From contig CADADB010000003.1 in assembly GCA_902786595.1 (NCBI GenBank), positions 85,206-149,205 of the forward strand: DNA of 64,000 bases, read 5' to 3'. This document shows, in pieces, positions 4,953 to 50,508 of this stretch. A program made the translations under genes and the position numbers. Numbering within the stretch: position 1 is the stretch's first letter; each line of letters begins with the position of its first letter. The notes below the pieces were generated by a model. It searched no databases and was not told the DNA's origin. It saw only the letters and a list, made by a program, of their open reading frames with translations. This stretch comes from an uncultured Bacteroidota bacterium. GTDB lineage: Bacteria > Bacteroidota > Bacteroidia > Bacteroidales > WCHB1-69.

Positions 4953-5516
4953 ATGAAAAACAATGAACCGATTCGCCTCTTAGGCGTCCGCGATGATTTT
5001 CGCAAAGTCAACTATGAAGAGTACAAGGACAGTTGTACCAATGAATTACTCCAACAATTCCGTGACGGGAAACTTGATGAAGACACCCCGATAGAGACCC
5101 TGCGCGGTCTGATGTACGGCTATACCTTCACCGATGAGTACGCCCAAAGCTGCCATTATCTAGACAGTCCGTTCAGCGTCCGGTATTGGGAGGATATTCT
5201 TGAGAATGACGATTTTCTTGAGGATGACAATCTTATAGACACTTATCAATACCAGACCGAACAGATTATTGACACAATACTGAGTACTGGTGACGGAAAA
5301 ACACCTGCTACTGCCTTCTGCGTCATCGACGTCTACCAGGAGTACGAGTTGTTGGATGAGATTTTCGTCTATAATGTGCCGAAGATAACCCGACAAAAGT
5401 TATTGGAAGGCGGTATTGACTGCATCGAATTCGAGCCGAACGATTTCGGGGTGGAAAAACTCTATTTCGATGTCCATCGGAGATTTGATGTGGATTATCC
5501 CAGGCCCTCTAAATAG
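4953..5516 (+). CDS. hypothetical protein (possibly DUF4919-like)
   Basis: 187-aa ORF directly after leader copy C. The segment GDGKTPATAFCVIDVYQEYELL is reminiscent of DUF4919, but this is unverified. Confidence 0.5.
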   Translation: MKNNEPIRLLGVRDDFRKVNYEEYKDSCTNELLQQFRDGKLDEDTPIETLRGLMYGYTFTDEYAQSCHYLDSPFSVRYWEDILENDDFLEDDNLIDTYQYQTEQIIDTILSTGDGKTPATAFCVIDVYQEYELLDEIFVYNVPKITRQKLLEGGIDCIEFEPNDFGVEKLYFDVHRRFDVDYPRPSK

Positions 5517-5645
5517 GGTGTTGAAGATGATATAAATGTATGAATATGAGCTCTATTTTCAAAGCAGTGTTGGCATTGCACACTGTGCCGTAGCAGAACA
5601 CCCTATTGTGGCCGGCGATGTAGGGCACCATCGGTGCGGTGGCTT

Positions 5646-6233
5646 TTACCCCTCAATGACCAGTTTTTCGAAGGTGTAGTAGTGTTCGGGGATGGGCGCA
5701 TCAAATTCGAGTCCATACCTGTCGGCGCGGTCGGTGGGTTTCAATGTCTCCACCCATTCTTGGTATTCATCGAATATCATATCGTTGTAATCTTCTCGTG
5801 CGTATTCTTCGTCATAATCTTCATCAGAAGTGTCCCAATCCTCTTTTTCAAGGTATTGTTCGAAACTTACAGAAGGAGTAAACAAACCGGCTTTTATATC
5901 TTCAGGCATCGTTTCCTCAAAGAAAAATTCTGTTGGGGGATCTGTTTCCAGGAAGCTTGCTACCGCCAACTCATAAGCCTCGGATTCAGCATCACCGAAA
6001 ATAGAGCTTAATTCTCGGTCAACCTGTTGGGAAATGCCATCCGAGTTGCTTATCAAATTATCCAAATCTTCGCTGGAGAGATCCAGTTCAATCTCGTTGC
6101 TTGCCTTTTCGTCATCTACCTGTTCGTCGCAATGTACCCACTGTTTGAGCAATTCGGCCAGTTCGTCGCTGATTTCATATTCCCGGGATTCGTCATTGTA
6201 CCCTCCGCTGATTTCAACATACAATTTATTCAT
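5646..6233 (-). CDS. highly acidic hypothetical protein
   Basis: 195 aa. I count 58 D+E against roughly 12 K+R. Confidence 0.55.
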   Translation of the reverse strand: MNKLYVEISGGYNDESREYEISDELAELLKQWVHCDEQVDDEKASNEIELDLSSEDLDNLISNSDGISQQVDRELSSIFGDAESEAYELAVASFLETDPPTEFFFEETMPEDIKAGLFTPSVSFEQYLEKEDWDTSDEDYDEEYAREDYNDMIFDEYQEWVETLKPTDRADRYGLEFDAPIPEHYYTFEKLVIEG

Positions 6234-21359: not shown

Positions 21360-22748
21360 ATGACACTTATTAAGTCCATTTCCGGAATCCGCGGAACCAT
21401 CGGAGGAACTGTCGGCGAGAACCTTACACCCGTTGATGTCGTGAAATTTACAACGGCTTTCGCCACTTTCCTGCTTGAAAAGAGAGAGGAAACTAACCCT
21501 ATGCGCATGGTGGTCGGGCGCGATGCCCGTATCTCCGGCGATATTGTGAACCGCTTGGTCTGCAGTACGTTGCAGAGCATGGGCATTGACGTGATCGACC
21601 TCGGCCTCTCCACGACCCCGACAACGGAGATGGCGGTCATCCAACAAAAAGCCGACGGCGGCATCATCATCACCGCCAGCCATAACCCGATGCAGTGGAA
21701 TGCGCTGAAGCTGCTCAACAGCACCGGTGAGTTCGTCTCCGGCGAGGAGGCCAAGCGTATTGTGGAACTTACAGAATCGGATGAATTAAACTATGCAACG
21801 ATCGACAAATTAGGTAGTTATACTCTGTATGAAAATGCTATCAAGGATCATGTGGATGCCATCCTGAATCTGCCGTTGGTGGACAAGAACGCCATCACGA
21901 AGGCCAACTTCAAGGTCATTTTGGACACGGTGAACTCCACGGGGGCATTGGCGCTTCCAGTGCTTCTCAAAGCGTTGGGCGTCAACGATGTGACGGTGCT
22001 TAACAGCGAGATGAACGGTGTCTTTTTCCACAATCCCGAACCGATCCCTGAGAACCTCGCGGGCATCTGCAACGCCATGAACCGCTCCAACTACGATGTC
22101 GGCTTCGTAGTTGATCCTGATGTGGATCGGTTGGCCATTGTCAAGGAAGATGGCACGCTGTTTGTCGAGGAGAACACCCTGGTGGCCGTGGCCGACTATG
22201 TGCTGCAACATACGCCCGGCAACACCGTCTCCAACCTCTCGTCTTCCCGTGCGTTGAAAGACGTAAGTGACAAGTATGGCGTTACTTACACGCCTTCCGC
22301 TGTGGGCGAGGTCAACGTGGTAGAGATGATGAAGAAGACCAACGCCGTCATCGGTGGTGAGGGCAACGGAGGGGTCATCTATCCCGAGCTGCACTATGGT
22401 CGCGACGCGCTCGTGGGCATCGCGCTCTTCCTCACCTACATGGCCAAGAGCGGCAAGAGCTGCAGCCAGATCCGCGCCCTCTATCCTGACTACTGCATCG
22501 TGAAGAAGAAAACCGAACTCGACAGTTCCGTTGACTTGAAGGGGATTCTGAACAAGATTGCCGAGAAATACGCTAATTATCAGGTAAATACGGTCGATGG
22601 TGTACGCGTCGATTTCGAGGACAGCTGGGTGCACGTGCGCAGTTCCAACACCGAACCCATCATGCGCATCTACGCCGAAGCCCTCACCCCGCAGGTCGCC
22701 GAGAACATCGCCAACAAGCTGATGGCGGACATACGGGAACTAATGTAG
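21360..22748 (+). CDS. glmM: phosphoglucosamine mutase
   Basis: MTLIKSISGIRGTIGG and the phosphoserine loop TASHNPMQWNALK. 462 aa. Confidence 0.85.
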   Translation: MTLIKSISGIRGTIGGTVGENLTPVDVVKFTTAFATFLLEKREETNPMRMVVGRDARISGDIVNRLVCSTLQSMGIDVIDLGLSTTPTTEMAVIQQKADGGIIITASHNPMQWNALKLLNSTGEFVSGEEAKRIVELTESDELNYATIDKLGSYTLYENAIKDHVDAILNLPLVDKNAITKANFKVILDTVNSTGALALPVLLKALGVNDVTVLNSEMNGVFFHNPEPIPENLAGICNAMNRSNYDVGFVVDPDVDRLAIVKEDGTLFVEENTLVAVADYVLQHTPGNTVSNLSSSRALKDVSDKYGVTYTPSAVGEVNVVEMMKKTNAVIGGEGNGGVIYPELHYGRDALVGIALFLTYMAKSGKSCSQIRALYPDYCIVKKKTELDSSVDLKGILNKIAEKYANYQVNTVDGVRVDFEDSWVHVRSSNTEPIMRIYAEALTPQVAENIANKLMADIRELM

Positions 22749-22820
22749 AATGCTGAATGATGAATGCTGAATGCTGAATGCTGAATGATGAATGTAGAAT
22801 GCTGAATGATGAATGATGAT
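22748..22820. repeat. ~10 tandem heptamers (GAATGCT/GAATGAT)
   Basis: Read directly. Starts at the glmM stop codon. Confidence 0.85.
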
Positions 22821-22912: not shown

Positions 22913-24277
22913 ATGACCAAACGAACACATATCCGGATAATTCCTGTGCTGCTGGCCCTGGTTATGGGGACGGCGGGGATGGTGTGCGCACAGGTGGATG
23001 AGCCATGCGGGTGTATGACCTCCGTGCGAAATCTGATCCATTATAATATCCAAATAATTGACAAGGGCATCATATCGAATCATAAGATTCTGTATTTGGA
23101 AGGTTATCAATGTGGAACTCCCGTTTATCTGGACAGCGCTGTTGTCAAGGGAGGCAAAGCTAAATTCAAAAGCAAGCATCCCGTCGAAAAGGGTGTATAT
23201 CATTTAGTCTATGAAAAAGGCGGGGCGCCGGTTTGGGACATCATGTTGCGAAATTCTCATAATAGCTTGATGACATACGGCAATGGGTACAATAAAGTTG
23301 GAAATTTTGCTTGTAAATCAGGAAGTTATGAGGTAAATTACGCGAATTTGTCTGATGAGATTCGTCGTGATTCAAGAGCCATCATTTCTGTGGATGCTTT
23401 CCGGCAGATAATAGAGAAATATTCCGATGCACCTGGCAGTTCTGTGGAACAGTATTATCTGTACGACGTTGCACTTTCTGCATACTTGTCTGTCCTCCAA
23501 CAGAATCCGCAGTTATCCATACCTAAATCTATTTACGACTATGTGATCTCGAAATTGAACCTTTCAGATCCTCTGATCTGGAATTCCAAGTCTGCGATTC
23601 ATCCGTTTATTTCTAAATATTTGACAGATAATCAGATATATGACACGGAATATTTGATTCCCGCTATAGATAGTCTGTTGGCGGGTTGCTGTAGGCCCGG
23701 TTTCTTGGCAACTTATCTTTTCAATGCCTATTGGGCATCGGGAGAACCTGCTTACGATCCAATTCTGTTGCATCTTTATGACAAATACAATCTTCCCTGT
23801 TGCTTGGGCGACCGTGCGCGTATAGCCAAACGGAAAATAGACGTTGTCCGCAAGCTCGCCCCCGGTGCGCAAATCCCCGAACTCACCGCTTACGACATTG
23901 ACGGCAAACAACACTCCACCAACGAGATACAGACGAAATACACGATTCTCTGGTTTTGGGATCCCGACTGCGACCACTGTCAGGAACAGACGCCGATTTT
24001 GCACGACCTATACCAAGAAAAAGCTGACGAGCTTGATTTTGAGGTCTTTGCCGTGGAGGTCAACGACGACTATGACCGCTGGACGGCCTTCTCCGAGAAA
24101 CACGGTCTCAGCGATTGGATCAATCTTAGCACTTCTATGGGCGAAACTAGTGAGGATTTCATCGAGTATTTCGATATTGTCACCACGCCCGTGATTTTGT
24201 TGATAGATAATGAAAAAAATCATGTAATAATTGCACGTCAAATTACGTTAGATGAGATTATGCGGTTGATGCGATGA
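22913..24277 (+). CDS. secreted thioredoxin-fold (TlpA/DUF5106-like) protein
   Basis: Signal peptide. WFWDPDCDHCQ CxxC motif near the C-terminus. Paralog of 24450..25979. Confidence 0.65.
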   Translation: MTKRTHIRIIPVLLALVMGTAGMVCAQVDEPCGCMTSVRNLIHYNIQIIDKGIISNHKILYLEGYQCGTPVYLDSAVVKGGKAKFKSKHPVEKGVYHLVYEKGGAPVWDIMLRNSHNSLMTYGNGYNKVGNFACKSGSYEVNYANLSDEIRRDSRAIISVDAFRQIIEKYSDAPGSSVEQYYLYDVALSAYLSVLQQNPQLSIPKSIYDYVISKLNLSDPLIWNSKSAIHPFISKYLTDNQIYDTEYLIPAIDSLLAGCCRPGFLATYLFNAYWASGEPAYDPILLHLYDKYNLPCCLGDRARIAKRKIDVVRKLAPGAQIPELTAYDIDGKQHSTNEIQTKYTILWFWDPDCDHCQEQTPILHDLYQEKADELDFEVFAVEVNDDYDRWTAFSEKHGLSDWINLSTSMGETSEDFIEYFDIVTTPVILLIDNEKNHVIIARQITLDEIMRLMR

Positions 24278-24357
24278 GACGATGAAGCGATGAGACGATG
24301 AAGCGATGAGACGATGAAGCGATGAGACGATGAAGCGATGAGACGATGAGACGATGA
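24273..24357. repeat. ~10 tandem octamers (gatgagac/gatgaagc)
   Basis: Read directly. Overlaps the stop codon. Confidence 0.85.
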
Positions 24358-31496: not shown

Positions 31497-32543
31497 ATGC
31501 CTGCAAACAAGAATGCTGTAACAAGGTACAAAGTGTTAGACGAATTGCTGTCCGACAAGTACCATTACTATAACATACACGAACTGACTGAAAAGATCAA
31601 TGACAGATTGGACGAATACGGATACAAGCCTGTTTCATCGCGAATGATTGAGAAAGACATCGAGTACTTGTCTGAACGTCCGTTCTGTGCGAACATTCAA
31701 AGGTTCAGGCACGAGGGCAAACGTTGTATTAAATACGAAGACCCATCGTTTTCCATCTTTACAAAGGAGCTTTCAGAGGATGAAAAGATTCTTTTGCACG
31801 AGGTGCTTAGCACTATAGGCCAATTTGACGGGCTTGACAATTTCGACTGGCTTGACGGATTGAAGCAGCGGTTGAAAGACAGCGAGTCCAACCAGAAAAA
31901 GATAATCTTTTTCGCCAACAATCCGGACCTTGAGAACTCAAATCTATTGGGTCGGCTTTTTTCCTCTATCTCGAACAAGGTCGCACTCAAAATGATCTAC
32001 AAGCCATTTGAACTTGAGAAAGAAACCTTTTTGTTCTATCCGTATGCCTTGAAACAATATAATGGACGTTGGTTTGTCTTCGGTAGGAAAGACGAAACGG
32101 ATAGGATATATAATCTCGCCATCGATAGAATCCGAAAAATCGAACCGAAGCCGAATGCGGCCTACATCGATTCGGATTTCAATCTGGAAGACCACATTTT
32201 TGATGTGGTTGGTGTCTCGATCCCCTTCGATGCTGAAATCGACGACATATTACTCTGGGTCTCGGACAAGTCTTACAACTATGTCAGGACTAAACCATTG
32301 CATCCGACCCAAAAGGAAGTAAAGGGGACTGCCGATTTAAAACTGCGCGATAACTATCCCCAACTTAACGGAGGCCGTTTCATTAGATTGAGATGCATTG
32401 TCAACTATGAACTTAAACAAACCATAGCGTCTATGCTCGGAGAAATGATTGTGCTTGAACCTGTCATTCTTCGTGATGAAATGGAACGATGCATTATCGC
32501 ACAAAGTGAAAAATATAAAGCTATACGAAAAAAGGATGCGTAA
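31497..32543 (+). CDS. WYL-domain transcriptional regulator (wHTH-WYL-WCX, BrxR/CapW-like)
   Basis: N-terminal wHTH (RYKVLDELLSDKYHYYNIHELTEKI), WYL core FYPYALKQYNGRWFVFG, C-terminal ...MIVLEPVILRDEM. Confidence 0.75.
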   Translation: MPANKNAVTRYKVLDELLSDKYHYYNIHELTEKINDRLDEYGYKPVSSRMIEKDIEYLSERPFCANIQRFRHEGKRCIKYEDPSFSIFTKELSEDEKILLHEVLSTIGQFDGLDNFDWLDGLKQRLKDSESNQKKIIFFANNPDLENSNLLGRLFSSISNKVALKMIYKPFELEKETFLFYPYALKQYNGRWFVFGRKDETDRIYNLAIDRIRKIEPKPNAAYIDSDFNLEDHIFDVVGVSIPFDAEIDDILLWVSDKSYNYVRTKPLHPTQKEVKGTADLKLRDNYPQLNGGRFIRLRCIVNYELKQTIASMLGEMIVLEPVILRDEMERCIIAQSEKYKAIRKKDA

Positions 32544-32551
32544 ATAAATCT

Positions 32552-32559
32552 TATTTTTG
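32552..32559 (+). promoter_or_regulatory. -7 box (tatttttg) driving the retron ncRNA/RT transcript
   Basis: TAnnTTTG match 13 nt before the a1 repeat. Confidence 0.55.
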
Positions 32560-32766
32560 CGGCATCAAAACAAACGTTCTTTGAGAGTCCTTCTGAAATG
32601 GCATTTTGAAAACTGTCTGGCGTCTTGCCAGATTTCCAGGTCAAACTGGAAAAGCAATGTTAGTGCGTTATTGTTTTAAGGTGTTTGGATGTGTTTGGAT
32701 GTTATTATAGTGATATATGGCATATACAAAGAAAACGAATTTCAGAAGACTCTCACGAACGTTTTA
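32560..32766 (+). ncRNA. retron-type non-coding RNA (msr-msd) candidate
   Basis: a1 (32572..32599, aaacgttctttgagagtccttctgaaat) and a2 (32739..32764, atttcagaagactctcacgaacgttt) are inverted repeats. Two msr-like hairpins: tctggc/gccaga (32616..32632) and ttccag/ctggaa (32634..32651). a2 ends 12 nt before the RT start. Confidence 0.6.
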
Positions 32767-32776
32767 GTATGTACAG

Positions 32777-34180
32777 ATGAATAGAGAAACTATTGCTGAA
32801 AAAGCGGAGAAAATGACGGAGAAGCAGGACCTGCTTCATTTGCTAAATGAAGTGAAGGTTGACATGCTTGGAGACAAGGCTCATCCCTTCAGTCTTCGAC
32901 AGCTCTGCTATTACTGTAACCCAAGAGTTAACAGGAAAAGATACACTGATTTCGAGATCCCCAAAAAATCCGGAGGCAAGAGACGCATTTCCGCTCCAGT
33001 CAACGGCCTGAAATCTATACTTTCATGCCTGAATATCATTTTCCAAGCCATGTACGAACCCTCAGAAAATGCGATGGGGTTTGCTGTGGGGAAATCTGTC
33101 GTTGACAATGCCAAGATACATGTTGGCAAGAATTATGTGTTCAATACGGATTTGAAGGATTTCTTCCCAAGCATTCACCAAGCTCGTGTTTGGAAACGAT
33201 TGCAATTGCCGCCCTTCAATTTCAATCAAAATATAGCTAACGTCATGGCTGGCCTTTGTTTTATGAAGGTAAGCAGTCCCGAAGGTGACAAGTATGTTCT
33301 TCCGCAAGGGGCACCCACTTCTCCCATAATCACAAATATGATATGCGACAAACTGGACAGGAGACTGAACGGGCTTGCGAACCGCTTTGGCCTGACATAT
33401 ACAAGATACGCAGACGACATTACTTTCAGTAGCATGCATAATGTTTATCAGGAGGATGGGGAGTTTATCAAGGAACTTCGTAGAATCATAGAAGACCAGA
33501 ATTTCACTATCAATGACTCCAAGACAAGGCTTCAGAGAAAGGGTTCACGACAAGAAGTGACAGGACTGACCGTGTGTGCCGCTCCTAATGTGACAAAACA
33601 ATATGTCCACAACATACGTTCTTTGCTTGCTATCTGGGAACACCATGGATATGACATTGCATACAGGCGTTTTCTTCCTCGATATATCGGAGAGAAAGGG
33701 CATGTAAAAAAAGGATTGCCGAATTTGGACAGTGTTTTGGCTGGCAAGCTTCTGTATTTGAAGATGGTCAAGGGCGCGGACAATCCGTTATATGCAAAAT
33801 TGCAATGTCGTTTCGACAATTTGATTGGAACAATGAATGGCGAAATGACTTCTGACACAGAATTACGCTTCCTATATACAATGGGGGCCAAAGAATTCGA
33901 CTTCACACATTCCAAAGGAAAATTGGAGAAAATTCAGGATGGTTTCTGCTATATAGAGAATGGTGCCAGAATACCTTTCAAGATCAGCAAGCAATTGTCA
34001 CAAGATGATTTAAATAATGACAATATCCAGATTTCGTATTGCGATAACGGGAAATCAAGGTTTTACTTGGTCCACAAACCGTTCCTGCAAAAACAGCCCA
34101 AGGACGACTCTCGCAACGATGAACTGAATAAGAAACTTACTGCTTTATGCGATTCTGGTTTTGATTTAAACATTTTATAA
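32777..34180 (+). CDS. retron-type reverse transcriptase with ~120-aa C-terminal extension
   Basis: IPKKSGGKRRISAP, NAKIH (NAxxH), DLKDFFPSI, LPQGAPTSPIITN, YTRYADDITFS, RQEVTGLTV (VTG). Confidence 0.85.
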   Translation: MNRETIAEKAEKMTEKQDLLHLLNEVKVDMLGDKAHPFSLRQLCYYCNPRVNRKRYTDFEIPKKSGGKRRISAPVNGLKSILSCLNIIFQAMYEPSENAMGFAVGKSVVDNAKIHVGKNYVFNTDLKDFFPSIHQARVWKRLQLPPFNFNQNIANVMAGLCFMKVSSPEGDKYVLPQGAPTSPIITNMICDKLDRRLNGLANRFGLTYTRYADDITFSSMHNVYQEDGEFIKELRRIIEDQNFTINDSKTRLQRKGSRQEVTGLTVCAAPNVTKQYVHNIRSLLAIWEHHGYDIAYRRFLPRYIGEKGHVKKGLPNLDSVLAGKLLYLKMVKGADNPLYAKLQCRFDNLIGTMNGEMTSDTELRFLYTMGAKEFDFTHSKGKLEKIQDGFCYIENGARIPFKISKQLSQDDLNNDNIQISYCDNGKSRFYLVHKPFLQKQPKDDSRNDELNKKLTALCDSGFDLNIL

Positions 34181-35266: not shown

Positions 35267-36955
35267 ATGGATGAAAAAAGAGTTATAAACAGAGATTATA
35301 TTGGAGTAGTTGTTGAAGAGTGTGGACTGCTCCAATACAAAGAAATTGACATTAACTACCCTCGGGAACTTGTGGCGGAAATGACAGCTATGGAAAAGGA
35401 CGAACAATCAACTATAATTGATGCACAGAGACTTTTTTGGAAATATTACCCGAAGGATAGCACTGGAGATAAAGGATTAAACTACCTATTCCCTAACAGT
35501 TATGAATCAACTTATAATGTGTGGTCACATGCTCCGAAGTTTTTCAATCAACAAGATTTCCCAATCGATAAAGTTGATGTTGGTGGCCTTATGTCAACAT
35601 GTCACATTGAAGAATATCTACTATACCCCTGTGGTTTTAATACCGAGAAAGAATATGTGCAATTTCTTGAACACAGAGAGCAGTTTTTTTTCTGTGAAAA
35701 TCAGATATTAACCCTTAAAGAGTTCCAAGAGCAATATGATGGAGATCCTGAAAGGTATGCTAAAGAAATAATAGAACTTGAAAAATTGGAGAATAGCGAT
35801 TTCAAGTATACTATTGAAATGGAGGATCTTCGGGAAAAATTCAAGGATGAAGTTCGTAAAAGAACAGAACGAGACCTTAAACAATTGGAAAATGAAATAC
35901 GATCATATTTTATCAAGGGCTGCGTTCGTTATGTCCATGCGATTTGCTATGATAGGTTAAGGGAGAATCTCCCTAAGTCCGCTTTCATGTTTTCTACTGA
36001 CAATTTGGGTTGGACTACATATAAACATCAATTATCCCAAATAGAACGCTTTGAAATCCACACGAACTATGGTTATGGGTCAAGATCGTATGCCTATTGT
36101 AATCTTTTCTACAAAGATATACCGATACTCCCATATACAGATGTGATTAAATACTCTTCTGTCGCATGGTTGCAAATTGTGAACTATACTCGTAGTTTTG
36201 TTCCTCAGAGAGAGGTCTGTTGGGAAAAGACGTTTGATTTTGTGATTGCGGTGTCCAATTTGATAAAAAAGAATCCCCAAAAATTTATTGACGAGTTCAT
36301 TGTGGATGAGATTAGTCAGCTGTTAAAACAACTGAAAGAGATTTTAAGGAACTCCCCTAAAGAGCTAAAAGAACACTTTGAAAGATATAAAATAGAAGAC
36401 AGAAGAACAACATTTGTTTGGAGTACAGGATTGGATCAAGAATCCTACAAAATTTTCCCGGAAGAACTTGCCGATGCTGAAAAAGTCGAAAAAATTACCG
36501 GTTGTTTGTTCTTTCTTGATAATATGCGTAAATTGAATGAGTTCATTCCTGTGATACGTGTATTCATAAACGATTTGATCGCATTGAACAATCAAATAAC
36601 CCCGATGATTGACTCCTATCTGTCTAAATTGTCGGAGGAAATACAACAGAATATGGCAGAAATAGAAGATCTGGCAGAAGCTATAAAGGAGGTTAAATCG
36701 CGTATGAAAAAATGCAAAGAGGAGAATGCTCCAGATTTGATCAAGGCACTCAATCTCAAAGAGGATCTCCTAAATGATTACTTGGAAAATCATCCTCTTA
36801 TAACAGATGCTTATCAGGAATATACCATTATGAGAGAAAAGTTAAGGGAACTTGATTGCCAAAAAGAAGAGAAATCCACGCATTTGCGGTTGCGAAAGAA
36901 CTTTTCAAAGAGATTTGAGGAATGTAAAGAGAGGATTAATAGACTTATGAAATAG
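35267..36955 (+). CDS. large hypothetical protein, paralog A (562 aa) with coiled-coil-like C-terminus
   Basis: Shares MD.KR.INRD(Y/F)IGV...YPRELVA..., ...ILPY.D.(I/V).Y.S..W....N.TRSF..., and the C-terminal K.F.K(R/K)F.EC..RI with 37010..38506. Confidence 0.6.
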   Translation: MDEKRVINRDYIGVVVEECGLLQYKEIDINYPRELVAEMTAMEKDEQSTIIDAQRLFWKYYPKDSTGDKGLNYLFPNSYESTYNVWSHAPKFFNQQDFPIDKVDVGGLMSTCHIEEYLLYPCGFNTEKEYVQFLEHREQFFFCENQILTLKEFQEQYDGDPERYAKEIIELEKLENSDFKYTIEMEDLREKFKDEVRKRTERDLKQLENEIRSYFIKGCVRYVHAICYDRLRENLPKSAFMFSTDNLGWTTYKHQLSQIERFEIHTNYGYGSRSYAYCNLFYKDIPILPYTDVIKYSSVAWLQIVNYTRSFVPQREVCWEKTFDFVIAVSNLIKKNPQKFIDEFIVDEISQLLKQLKEILRNSPKELKEHFERYKIEDRRTTFVWSTGLDQESYKIFPEELADAEKVEKITGCLFFLDNMRKLNEFIPVIRVFINDLIALNNQITPMIDSYLSKLSEEIQQNMAEIEDLAEAIKEVKSRMKKCKEENAPDLIKALNLKEDLLNDYLENHPLITDAYQEYTIMREKLRELDCQKEEKSTHLRLRKNFSKRFEECKERINRLMK

Positions 36956-37009
36956 TGGGATTGTAAAATAGAGTGCTGGAAATATAGTAACAGATTGAAA
37001 CAAATAAAC

Positions 37010-38506
37010 ATGGACAATAAGCGAATAATTAACAGAGATTTTATCGGGGTGATAAAGGATGAGGGAGGTCGGTTTAAATATGACGAGGTTGAAATCCATT
37101 ATCCACGAGAACTTGTGGCAGCGATTGAGGCGATGAGTAAGGATGATGATTGTACGATAATGGATGTCCAGGGCATTTTTTTAAAGTATTACCCCAAGCA
37201 GACAATCAACGAACGTTTTTATCATTACATTTACCCATATTCGTATAGATGTTATTGTAAAAGTGTTGCTGATGCCCCCGAATTCTGTTCTTTTGATAGT
37301 TATAAACGAAGCCTCGTCAATCAGGGAGGATATTTGCTGAGAAACAATGAAACGCCTCTGGGATTTGAATCCCAAGAAGCATATCAAAAGACTACTGCAT
37401 GGCTTTGCGATGAGATGAATATTGAACCGGCGGAATGTTCTAATCTATTACGAAGAAATTTTTCCCGTAATATTATTAGGTATATATATGCGCGTAATTA
37501 TCATGAAACCTTGGAATCCATCAAATCTTCGGTATTGATTTACTCCGATGAGAAGTCAGGGTGGAGGACGGTCTCTGTTGATTTCGGTGGCGGACTTTCG
37601 GTGACTATTTCAACTAATTTTTCTTTTCCGTGTAACTGGTATATTGATGTCAGAGTCTATCTAAATAATATTGTGATATTACCTTATTTGGATTCAGTCA
37701 TATACCCGAGCACTCAATGGCAGATTTTTCATAACGCAACACGCTCTTTTGAAAAAGAAGATCGAGACACATGCTGGCAAAGTATGTTTTTATTTCTGGT
37801 GGATGTCGCAAATATGTGGATAGAAAGTCCGCAACGTTTTGTTTCTAAGTATATTGTGGAAGAAATTAAAGGAGCTGTTTCTGGTCTAGATTATATATTA
37901 CAATCTTCCGATGAACAGTTGCTGGAACAATTCAAGAATTTCCCAGAAGGGGAAAAGCGGACTTCGTATGTTGGAGAAATGCTTGATTCCACTTTAATTG
38001 AGACAGAACCAGAACTGACTGTGATGTTTGAAAAATCGGATAAAATTACAGGACTACTATGCTTTTTGCACTTATTTCGCCAGTTGAGTGAGTTTGACTC
38101 ATCTGTCTGCCAATTCATTGACAAATTGACGGCTCTGAATGAACAGATGTCCCCTTTGATAGAGTCAAAACTTTTAGAATTGCATAAACAGATTCAATTA
38201 AACAAAATAGAAATTGATGAACTAAATAAGGCTATACGAGACGGAAAATCCAGGATAAAAGTATATAAGGAAGAGCATTTTCGAGAATTCGAAGAATTCT
38301 TGAATCTAACAGGCGTTGATCGAAAAAATTATCTAAATGATAAACCACAATTTGCCGAAGTGTATCAGAAATATAAGTCTCAAAAAGAACAAATAAAAGA
38401 ACTTAAGCAAGATTTTGATAATAAATCGGCTCATTTGTGCACGCAAAAAAACTTCATGAAGAAATTTAAAGAATGTCAGAAAAGAATAGAGACGTACTTG
38501 ACATAA
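37010..38506 (+). CDS. large hypothetical protein, paralog B (~498 aa)
   Basis: Start set at MDNKRIINRDFIGV by alignment to paralog A. The ORF track begins at TTG 36995. Confidence 0.6.
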   Translation: MDNKRIINRDFIGVIKDEGGRFKYDEVEIHYPRELVAAIEAMSKDDDCTIMDVQGIFLKYYPKQTINERFYHYIYPYSYRCYCKSVADAPEFCSFDSYKRSLVNQGGYLLRNNETPLGFESQEAYQKTTAWLCDEMNIEPAECSNLLRRNFSRNIIRYIYARNYHETLESIKSSVLIYSDEKSGWRTVSVDFGGGLSVTISTNFSFPCNWYIDVRVYLNNIVILPYLDSVIYPSTQWQIFHNATRSFEKEDRDTCWQSMFLFLVDVANMWIESPQRFVSKYIVEEIKGAVSGLDYILQSSDEQLLEQFKNFPEGEKRTSYVGEMLDSTLIETEPELTVMFEKSDKITGLLCFLHLFRQLSEFDSSVCQFIDKLTALNEQMSPLIESKLLELHKQIQLNKIEIDELNKAIRDGKSRIKVYKEEHFREFEEFLNLTGVDRKNYLNDKPQFAEVYQKYKSQKEQIKELKQDFDNKSAHLCTQKNFMKKFKECQKRIETYLT

Positions 38507-43530: not shown

Positions 43531-43593
43531 CGGTTTGCGGTTTACGATTTGCGGTTTACGATTTGCGGTTTACGATTTACGGTTTACGGTTTT
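43531..43593. repeat. 9 tandem heptamers (CGGTTTG/CGGTTTA/CGATTTG)
   Basis: Read directly. Confidence 0.85.
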
Positions 43594-47805: not shown

Positions 47806-47937
47806 CCTTACCCCCTTGCCCTGCGGGCATCCCCCCTAAAGGGATTTACCCCCCTGCCCTGCGGGCATCCCCCCTAAAGGGATTTACCCCCCTGCCCTTC
47901 GGGCATCCCCCCTAAAGGGGGGAATGGTCCTTCGATC
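47806..47937 (-). repeat. three tandem REP-like double-hairpin elements (inverted orientation)
   Basis: The unit cccctgccctgcgggcatcccccctaaaggg occurs three times. The last copy ends ggggggaatggtccttcgatcg. Confidence 0.85.
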
Positions 47938-50400: not shown

Positions 50401-50508
50401 ACTTTAGACTGAGGACTTTGGACTGAGGACTTTGGACTCTAGATTTGTATTATCCTTTACATCTCAAGTCTCAAGTCTCAAGTCTCAAATCTCAAGTCTT
50501 AAGTCCTA
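50401..50508. repeat. 14-nt (2x7) repeat ggactgaggacttt, followed by heptamers tctcaag x5
   Basis: Read directly. Confidence 0.85.

Follow-up and report, generated by a model that had tools for sequence, protein, structure and literature searches.

A probable msr-msd RNA of a protease-less, WYL-associated type XI-like retron in an uncultured Bacteroidota bacterium

Organization and distribution of the locus

The DNA analyzed is a 64,000-nt stretch of contig CADADB010000003.1 from an uncultured Bacteroidota bacterium (WCHB1-69), referred to here as the window. A candidate retron non-coding RNA (ncRNA) had been predicted at positions 32560-32766. The interval is preceded by a gene for a WYL-domain regulator and followed by a gene for a retron reverse transcriptase (RT). 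The start codon of the next gene, for a translationally coupled 298-aa protein, is located 1 nt past the RT stop codon, and two diverged paralogous genes lie further downstream. The elements identified are listed in Table 1. Family searches with Pfam, PADLOC and NCBIfam gave no match for the two paralogues. Their relatives recur near RTs in four loci, downstream in L011 and L012 and upstream of the WYL gene in L018 and L020, and the two may be accessory genes of the retron system.

Table 1. Genes, RNA elements and regulatory sequences of the retron locus, in window coordinates
Feature	Position	Strand	Remarks
WYL-domain regulator gene, 348 aa	31497..32543	+	Pfam WYL 1.7e-08; PADLOC WYL 6.8e-18
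Palindrome TACG-N11-CGTA (TACGaaaaaaggatGCGTA)	32524..32542	.	candidate WYL operator
Presumed Bacteroidota -7 promoter box TAnnTTTG (TATTTTTG)	32552..32559	+	motif count in homologous loci
a1 arm	32572..32599	+	conserved box UCUUUGA at 32578-84
Internal loop GGCA	32600..32603	+	holds G32600/G32601
Innermost a1 helix UUUU	32604..32607	+	pairs with 32732-32735
Invariant G of the (A/U)UUGA box	32608	+	branching-guanosine candidate
msr stem-loop 1 (SL1)	32615..32633	+	91% paired; 6/8 pairs change on both sides
msr stem-loop 2 (SL2)	32634..32651	+	72.5% paired; 3/5 pairs covary
CAAUGU box (32655..32669) with small stem-loop 3 (SL3)	32656-32669	+	about 90% paired in 4/5 pairs, the fifth 62%; 2/5 pairs change on both sides
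Presumed msd template	32661..32731	+	limits by analogy with sequenced clade-8 RT-DNAs
Decamer repeat GTGTTTGGAT	32681-32702	+	TRF: period 10, 2.2 copies, 100% match, score 44
Small palindrome tatatg-g-catata	32714-32726	+	
Conserved msd 3' end UAUAC-AAAG	32722-32731	+	
Innermost a2 helix AAAA	32732..32735	+	
a2 arm	32739..32764	+	
Retron RT gene, 467 aa	32777..34180	+	PADLOC RT-Protease_XI, Pfam RVT_1
Gene for all-helical protein, 298 aa	34182..35078	+	RNxxxH motif; candidate HEPN-type effector
Two diverged paralogous genes, 562 and 503 aa	35267..38506 (35267-36955, 36995-38506)	+	no family match

A family search with the RT gave 7,658 matches, mainly unnamed metagenome proteins, and 94 loci (L001-L094) were fetched from species genomes, by exact-protein look-ups and from metagenomes. 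The loci from species genomes include MAGs of Barnesiella, Duncaniella, Prevotella and Bacteroides. A WYL homologue adjoins the RT in about 45 loci, and in about 16 the next gene after the RT encodes a homologue of the 298-aa protein. An RT homologue was present in just one of 18 genomes from the same genus; thus, the system is island-borne and patchy in its distribution. Immediately 3' to the homologous retron locus L011 are genes for a HipA-like kinase and an HTH protein (L011 7989-9407), a neighborhood that fits a defence or toxin-antitoxin island. The window itself holds many short tandem arrays with units of 7-8 nt (for example at 22748-22819, 24267-24357, 43531-43592 and 50462-50505), as well as a 38-nt unit repeated 2.9 times at 47808-47919 (TRF score 210).

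The reverse transcriptase

The best PADLOC match of the RT was to RT-Protease_XI (1.8e-103, aa 41-353), followed by RT-TIR_XII and RT-Toprim_I-C, and all of these models align with aa ~40-355 only. The values for the type XII and RT_IX models were 1e-95 and 1e-48. NCBIfam agrees with PADLOC in placing the protein among the RTs of retrons XI, XII and I-C. The motifs NAxxH (N111-A112-H115), YADD (Y211-A212-D213-D214) and VTG (V261-T262-G263) are invariant in 35 sequences. When the AlphaFold (AF2) model of the RT (pLDDT 84) was compared with known structures using Foldseek, the best match was retron Eco2 (E 4.5e-22, ~30% identity), followed by Ec86, Eco7, Ec78, Ec83 and Eco8; the top 16 matches were all retron RTs.

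The match to RT-Protease_XI ends at aa 353, which corresponds to position 325 of the 510 positions of the profile. No Pfam match was found for the C-terminal ~110-117 aa, which are modelled by AF2 as a small beta-rich domain plus a helix. We conclude from this that there is no fused protease, and the C-terminal trypsin-like protease that marks canonical type XI RTs is absent from this protein. Related RT ORFs carry highly variable C-terminal fusions and range from ~360 to >1,000 aa, with a conserved core that ends near aa 350; the C-terminus is thus a swap site.

Pairing of the a1 and a2 arms

The original prediction described an a1/a2 pairing with one bulge and one mismatch region, and such a pairing is present. 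It comprises 25 bp in three blocks, 32572-79/32757-64 (8 bp), 32582-89/32748-55 (8 bp) and 32591-99/32739-47 (9 bp), which are separated by UU32580-81 opposite C32756 and by the bulged C32590. The two arms are 139 nt apart. RNA folding of 32560-32776 gave a minimum free energy (MFE) of -68.2 kcal/mol (z = -5.5), and none of 200 dinucleotide shuffles was as good. The two short hairpins proposed at 32616-32632 and 32634-32651 were likewise recovered, with SL1 one base longer on either side.

The upstream regions of related RT loci were read for elements in common, and these occur in a fixed order. The promoter box comes first. Next is a1, whose outer box, (G)GUCUUUGA, is conserved and whose inner part varies, and then (A/U)UUGA. 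The middle part consists of SL1, GAUGUC, SL2 and AACAAUGU with the small SL3; an AT-rich variable stretch, Y-AAAGA(A/G) and a2 complete the series. Both anchor motifs together with an a1/a2 duplex of -21 to -43 kcal/mol were found in 53 loci, which were picked by these anchor motifs, so that the invariance of the motifs is partly circular. The ncRNA of the window, at 195 nt, is among the shortest of the 53.

Since the variable a1 and a2 arms cannot be aligned by sequence, no consensus structure emerged from RNAalifold when a1 + linker + a2 chimeras were aligned with MAFFT, and the columns of the a1-inner helix are only 58% paired in alignment A3. For this reason, duplex energies of cognate and non-cognate arms were compared and named structures were counted, and it is pairing energies, not alignment columns, that speak for a conserved a1/a2 stem. 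The mean duplex energy was -33.6 kcal/mol for cognate arms versus -15.4 kcal/mol for non-cognate arms, and in 41 of 50 loci the cognate partner was better than every partner taken from loci with <70% a1 identity. A locus-specific a1/a2 pairing is thus kept in at least 53 homologous loci. Rfam searches at the gathering threshold and, over 32450-32850, at E <= 10 gave only chance matches to models of eukaryotic lncRNAs; we know of no Rfam model for this retron lineage.

Several short boxes in the RNA resemble one another. There are two look-alike 5' boxes, UCUUUGA (32578-32584) and AUUUUGA (32603-32609), and two look-alike 3' boxes, CAAAGAA (32727-32733) and UCAAAGA, the latter in most relatives. 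An alternative partner for the a1 box, in place of a2, is CAAAGA (columns 18-23 and 68-73 of A3), in which case 93-100% of cells are paired, without covariation. Both the window and locus L014 have CACGAAC as the a2 box, leaving an uncompensated mismatch in the stem.

The msr stem-loops, the inner helix and the candidate branching guanosine

Covariation was counted over SL1-3 and the inner helix in a 34-sequence alignment (A2), in which 86.4% of cells are paired and 12 of the 22 pairs change on both sides across homologous loci. Controls in which the structures were slid along the alignment reached at most 54% paired, and none of 500 shuffles reached the observed counts for the named structures. 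In loci L015, L021, L023, L025, L028, L029, L032, L033, L034 and L041 the loop of SL1 holds an extra hairpin of ~30 nt (A2 columns 85-117); the msr thus tolerates expansion at this site.

The 25-bp stem is followed by an internal loop, in which GGCA (32600-03) faces CGA (32736-38), and then by the 4-bp inner helix. The cells of this helix are 97.8% paired in 45 loci and 96.3% paired in A2. Double changes from U-A to A-U occur at two of its positions, in 8 and 12 sequences, so that UUUU/AAAA becomes AUUU/AAAU or UAUU/AAUA. The inner helix leads directly to position 32608, which is G in all 45 rows of A3. Seven additional loci, chosen without requiring the full anchor motifs, likewise have G at the equivalent position, which mitigates the circularity of the motif-based selection. 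On the 3' strand, the inner helix is preceded by an invariant AAAG (32728-31) in the conserved context (A/U)UA-N-A-Y. The first 10 nt of the putative template, (A/U)UA-N-A-Y-AAAG, are conserved, as expected for an initiation site.

The branching guanosine had been proposed at G32600 or G32601, right after a1. These residues do directly follow the 25-bp stem; they lie, however, within the internal loop and not at the end of the conserved stem, which runs on as the covarying inner helix. Over the four columns that correspond to them, G is missing from 21 of 45 homologues, and over six columns it is still missing from 15 of 45. Thus, priming at these residues is probably not the case. On this pattern of conservation, G32608 is the best candidate for the guanosine that supplies the branching 2'-OH, and we consider this assignment somewhat better than an even chance. 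Its placement at the inner end of a1, facing the first template nucleotides, corresponds to classical retron geometry. In proteobacterial type XI ncRNAs, UUUAAC takes the place of the UUUUGA of the window's family, and a G is found in the short spacer (ACG, GAG) instead (PMC10849725); the junction G is therefore not universal in RT clade 8.

The presumed msd

The limits of the msd were set by analogy with RT-DNAs sequenced for RT clade 8. The RT-DNA of type XI terminal 1278 starts opposite the G of GUAAAAGAG|AAAAUG-a2 and ends a few nucleotides 3' of CCAAUG (PMC10849725, supplement 3), and that of type XII ends within UUAAUG (PMC10849725). In three of the four sequenced clade-8 RT-DNAs (XI 1278, XII and I-C3), the first nucleotide lies opposite a G or A immediately 5' to the A-tract that precedes a2 (PMC10849725). 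By this analogy, the template in the window would extend from about G32731 to about position 32661 and would give a DNA of ~70 nt.

The original prediction found no long hairpin in the msd, and folding bears this out. RNA 32655-32731 has an MFE of -13.6 kcal/mol (z -1.0). Its complement folded as DNA has an MFE of -0.3 kcal/mol (z +1.1), so that the textbook long msd hairpin is absent here; as a yardstick, Ec86 msDNA gave a DNA fold of -23.6 kcal/mol (z -7.3). The description of the msd as atypical holds only against textbook retrons such as Ec86, since members of this RT family as a rule have an msd with little structure and few Gs. Over 47 non-redundant loci, the msd from the CAAUG box to AAAG had a median z of -1.05 as RNA and -0.41 as the DNA complement, and DNA values below -2 were found in only four of the 47. 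A conserved msd hairpin was sought in the homologues and gave no family-wide signal, with hairpins seen in some loci (e.g. L029, L040 and L041). Across the family the predicted DNA strand is A-rich (~42%) and G-poor (~11%; 5% in the window). When the sequenced clade-8 RT-DNAs were folded as DNA, z values were -0.44 and -0.65 for type XI terminals 1278 and 1235, +0.51 for type XII terminal 1195 and +0.33 for type I-C3. The msDNA strands in the cryo-EM structure of Eco2 also "did not form hairpins" (PMC12916289). Since a hairpin is absent both from the clade-8 RT-DNAs and from the Eco2 structure, a long msd hairpin is not a family-defining feature. The lack of a hairpin is real, and it characterizes RT clade 8 as well as the entire family; the data for this are already in the literature.

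Two smaller features of the msd had also been pointed out. The tandem decamer is an exact repeat, and the small palindrome is present, at coordinates one base before those originally given. The emphasis on the decamer does not hold up. Its TRF score is near the bottom of the 43 TRF rows scoring >=40 in the window, and the rest of the 64 kb shows no excess of the decamer. The closest relative, L014, has an RT 91% identical to that of the window; over promoter and ncRNA (246 nt) the two loci have six differences, five of them within 32677-32716, in the presumed msd, and two of these break the decamer. The decamer is therefore not a conserved feature; it is real but not statistically special, an incidental local duplication.

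Promoter and candidate operator

The sequence TAnnTTTG, which we take to be the consensus of the Bacteroidota -7 promoter box, occurs in the 60 nt that precede a1 in 42 of the 53 loci, versus 0.05 per scanned interval as background. The palindrome TACGaaaaaaggatGCGTA is located within the 3' end of the WYL gene, some 10 nt before the box. At the equivalent position just upstream of the promoter box, homologous loci have ACGAAcatAGanTTCGT. Judged from sequence, the palindrome may be an operator for the WYL protein.

The candidate effector

The 298-aa protein has 68 homologues, all without annotation. Its structural model is all-helical (pLDDT 82). Foldseek against the PDB gave a best E-value of 1.2, and a profile search of PDB sequences found nothing significant. 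Residues R198, N199 and H203, which form an RNxxxH motif, are invariant in 40 aligned sequences, and this motif would fit the Rx4-6H motif of HEPN RNases. Weak matches to DUF4145 were found in nine of 40 members (best 2.6e-5), along with a few to HEPN_Apea or HEPN_Swt1, and one homologue (L008) passes the Pfam cut-off for DUF4145. From the motif and the sub-threshold Pfam matches, a weak assignment can be made of the protein as a candidate HEPN-type RNase effector. In L011 the RT is followed by a gene (5413-6147) for a 244-aa protein that resembles the 298-aa family (hhalign probability 92.7%) in its N-terminal ~115 residues only. These residues may thus be a common RT-docking module, with C-terminal effector parts that are exchangeable.

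Interpretation and alternatives

The downstream retron-type RT, the a1/a2 complementarity in more than 50 loci, the covarying msr and the conserved promoter strongly support the reading of this element as a retron ncRNA. We consider that 32572-32764 is very probably the msr-msd ncRNA of a protease-less, WYL-associated type XI-like retron (TXI_C2like), which would work as follows. Transcription from the promoter, possibly gated by the WYL protein, would give one transcript of ncRNA, RT and 298-aa gene. The RNA closes through a1/a2 (25 bp plus the 4-bp inner helix) and presents the three short msr stem-loops, which would be recognized by the RT. With the 2'-OH of G32608 as primer, the RT would begin copying at about G32731, proceed leftwards and end in the neighborhood of the CAAUG box, at about 32661, yielding an msDNA of ~70 nt, A/C-rich and G-poor, that would stay single-stranded without a hairpin. 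By analogy with Eco2 and other retrons, the complex of RT and msDNA may hold the HEPN-like protein inactive, and phage-induced damage to, or binding of, the msDNA would free it for RNA cleavage and abortive infection. In this scheme the closure of the RNA and the existence of the named parts come from the computations, and the functions of the parts are predicted.

Other readings of the same DNA were weighed against this one. Priming might occur at G32600/G32601, with an msd peculiar to this locus and the decamer as a functional part of an unusual msDNA. The placement of these Gs directly after the 25-bp stem would suit such a reading, as would the proteobacterial type XI ncRNAs, in which G is found in the equivalent short spacer (ACG, GAG) and none follows the U-tract. 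It is nevertheless improbable, as many homologues have no G there and the stem covaries beyond the loop; the decamer, which two substitutions disrupt in the closest relative, scores among the lowest of the 43 arrays, and the hairpin is missing family-wide. It is also quite improbable that the conserved RNA serves without any branched msDNA, as an RT-bound scaffold, as a 5' leader controlling expression of the RT and effector, or as a template like those of DRT2 or DRT9. No msDNA has ever been shown for the type XI-like retrons of Bacteroidota, as Toro 2026 states (PMC13712802), the msd has no structure, and type XI terminal 1278 was scored as 0 for RT-DNA by PAGE in the census (PMC10849725). 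Yet the RT keeps every retron-specific motif and is structurally closest to Eco2, relatives of types XI and XII yielded sequenced RT-DNA, which in three of four clade-8 cases starts opposite a G or A 5' to the A-tract, and the first 10 nt of the template are conserved. An inverted repeat that has nothing to do with the RT (a WYL-gene terminator, a MITE-like element or chance) could be suspected in an AT-rich, intergenic region without an Rfam match. Here, however, the arms, 139 nt apart, enclose a conserved structured RNA, and in over 50 loci, which come from many genera, the homologous RT is preceded at a constant distance by the same architecture with locus-specific complementarity; this explanation is effectively refuted.

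A more speculative proposal can also be made, which we regard as possible though unlikely. The single-stranded msDNA of this Bacteroidales lineage, with ~5% G, may be deliberately structure-free and serve as bait for phage SSBs or nucleases rather than as a folded scaffold, and the output would be a separate HEPN-type RNase; alternatively, the RNA may never be copied into DNA in the classical branched manner. If true, this would set bait-type msDNA use apart from the scaffolds whose structures have been solved to date, the hairpin of Ec86 and the three-way junction of Eco2. Among gut Bacteroidales the dominant retrons are those of the type XI-like kind, whose ncRNA was recognized only in a computational survey of September 2026. 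Since its parts are compact and clearly delimited, the locus lends itself as a construct with which to begin msDNA and defence assays in this lineage. A template that tolerates free sequence change and needs no hairpin would also be of interest for the production of DNA donors by retrons.

Comparison with known retrons

Type IX retrons consist of an RT and a HEPN-domain protein (Mestre 2020), and the window is like them in having a separate gene with a HEPN-type motif beside a retron RT. However, the RT is far weaker on the RT_IX model than on that of type XI, and the HEPN assignment is weak. The closest solved RT structure is that of Eco2 (Ec67, type I-C), in which the msDNA is likewise not folded as a hairpin. 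There, the msDNA cages an RNA-cleaving nuclease: the phage nuclease DenB degrades the Eco2 msDNA, whereupon the tRNA-cleaving TOPRIM domain is released (PMC12916289). The nuclease of Eco2 is a fused TOPRIM domain, whereas the candidate nuclease here is a separate HEPN-like protein. The msDNA strands of Eco2 form a three-way junction, whereas the msDNA predicted here is only 5% G and thus would have almost no capacity for self-pairing or inter-strand pairing.

No ncRNA was found for type XI by Mestre 2020 (PMC7736814); in the census of Khan 2024, some type XI ncRNAs were validated experimentally and RT-DNAs were sequenced for RT clade 8 (PMC10849725). The RT core of the window matches canonical types XI and XII of this clade at E 1e-103 and 1e-95, respectively. 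The RNAs are also built alike: a1, a short spacer and a U-tract box are followed by one or more stem-loops and an AAUG box, and after the template come AAAGA(G/A) with an A-tract and then a2. The sequenced RT-DNAs, too, are not hairpins. Unlike in these types, the RT of the window has no fused trypsin-like protease or TIR domain, and the candidate effector is encoded by a gene of its own. The window has UUUUGA as its junction box versus UUUAAC in the proteobacterial examples, and the hosts here are Bacteroidota.

The closest likeness is to TXI_C2like, the type XI-like retrons of Bacteroidota defined by Toro (mSystems 2026; PMC13712802) in a purely computational study, which stressed that msDNA synthesis was untested. 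The window has the marks by which that group is recognized: a protease-less type XI-like RT, a WYL gene at -1, a Bacteroidota host and, compared with the published description, an upstream ncRNA of three stem-loops flanked by a1 and a2. The likeness extends to an RT that scores best on type XI models and has a variable C-terminal extension, to hosts among the Bacteroidales and to an unannotated accessory protein without a structural match. Toro 2026 names no branching G, msd limits or effector fold (PMC13712802). To that description the present analysis adds a junction G, a covarying inner helix, an msd that is unstructured throughout the family and clade, a promoter, a candidate operator and the RNxxxH motif. 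The locus is otherwise ordinary; it confirms and refines a known kind of retron, in a lineage first described computationally in 2026.
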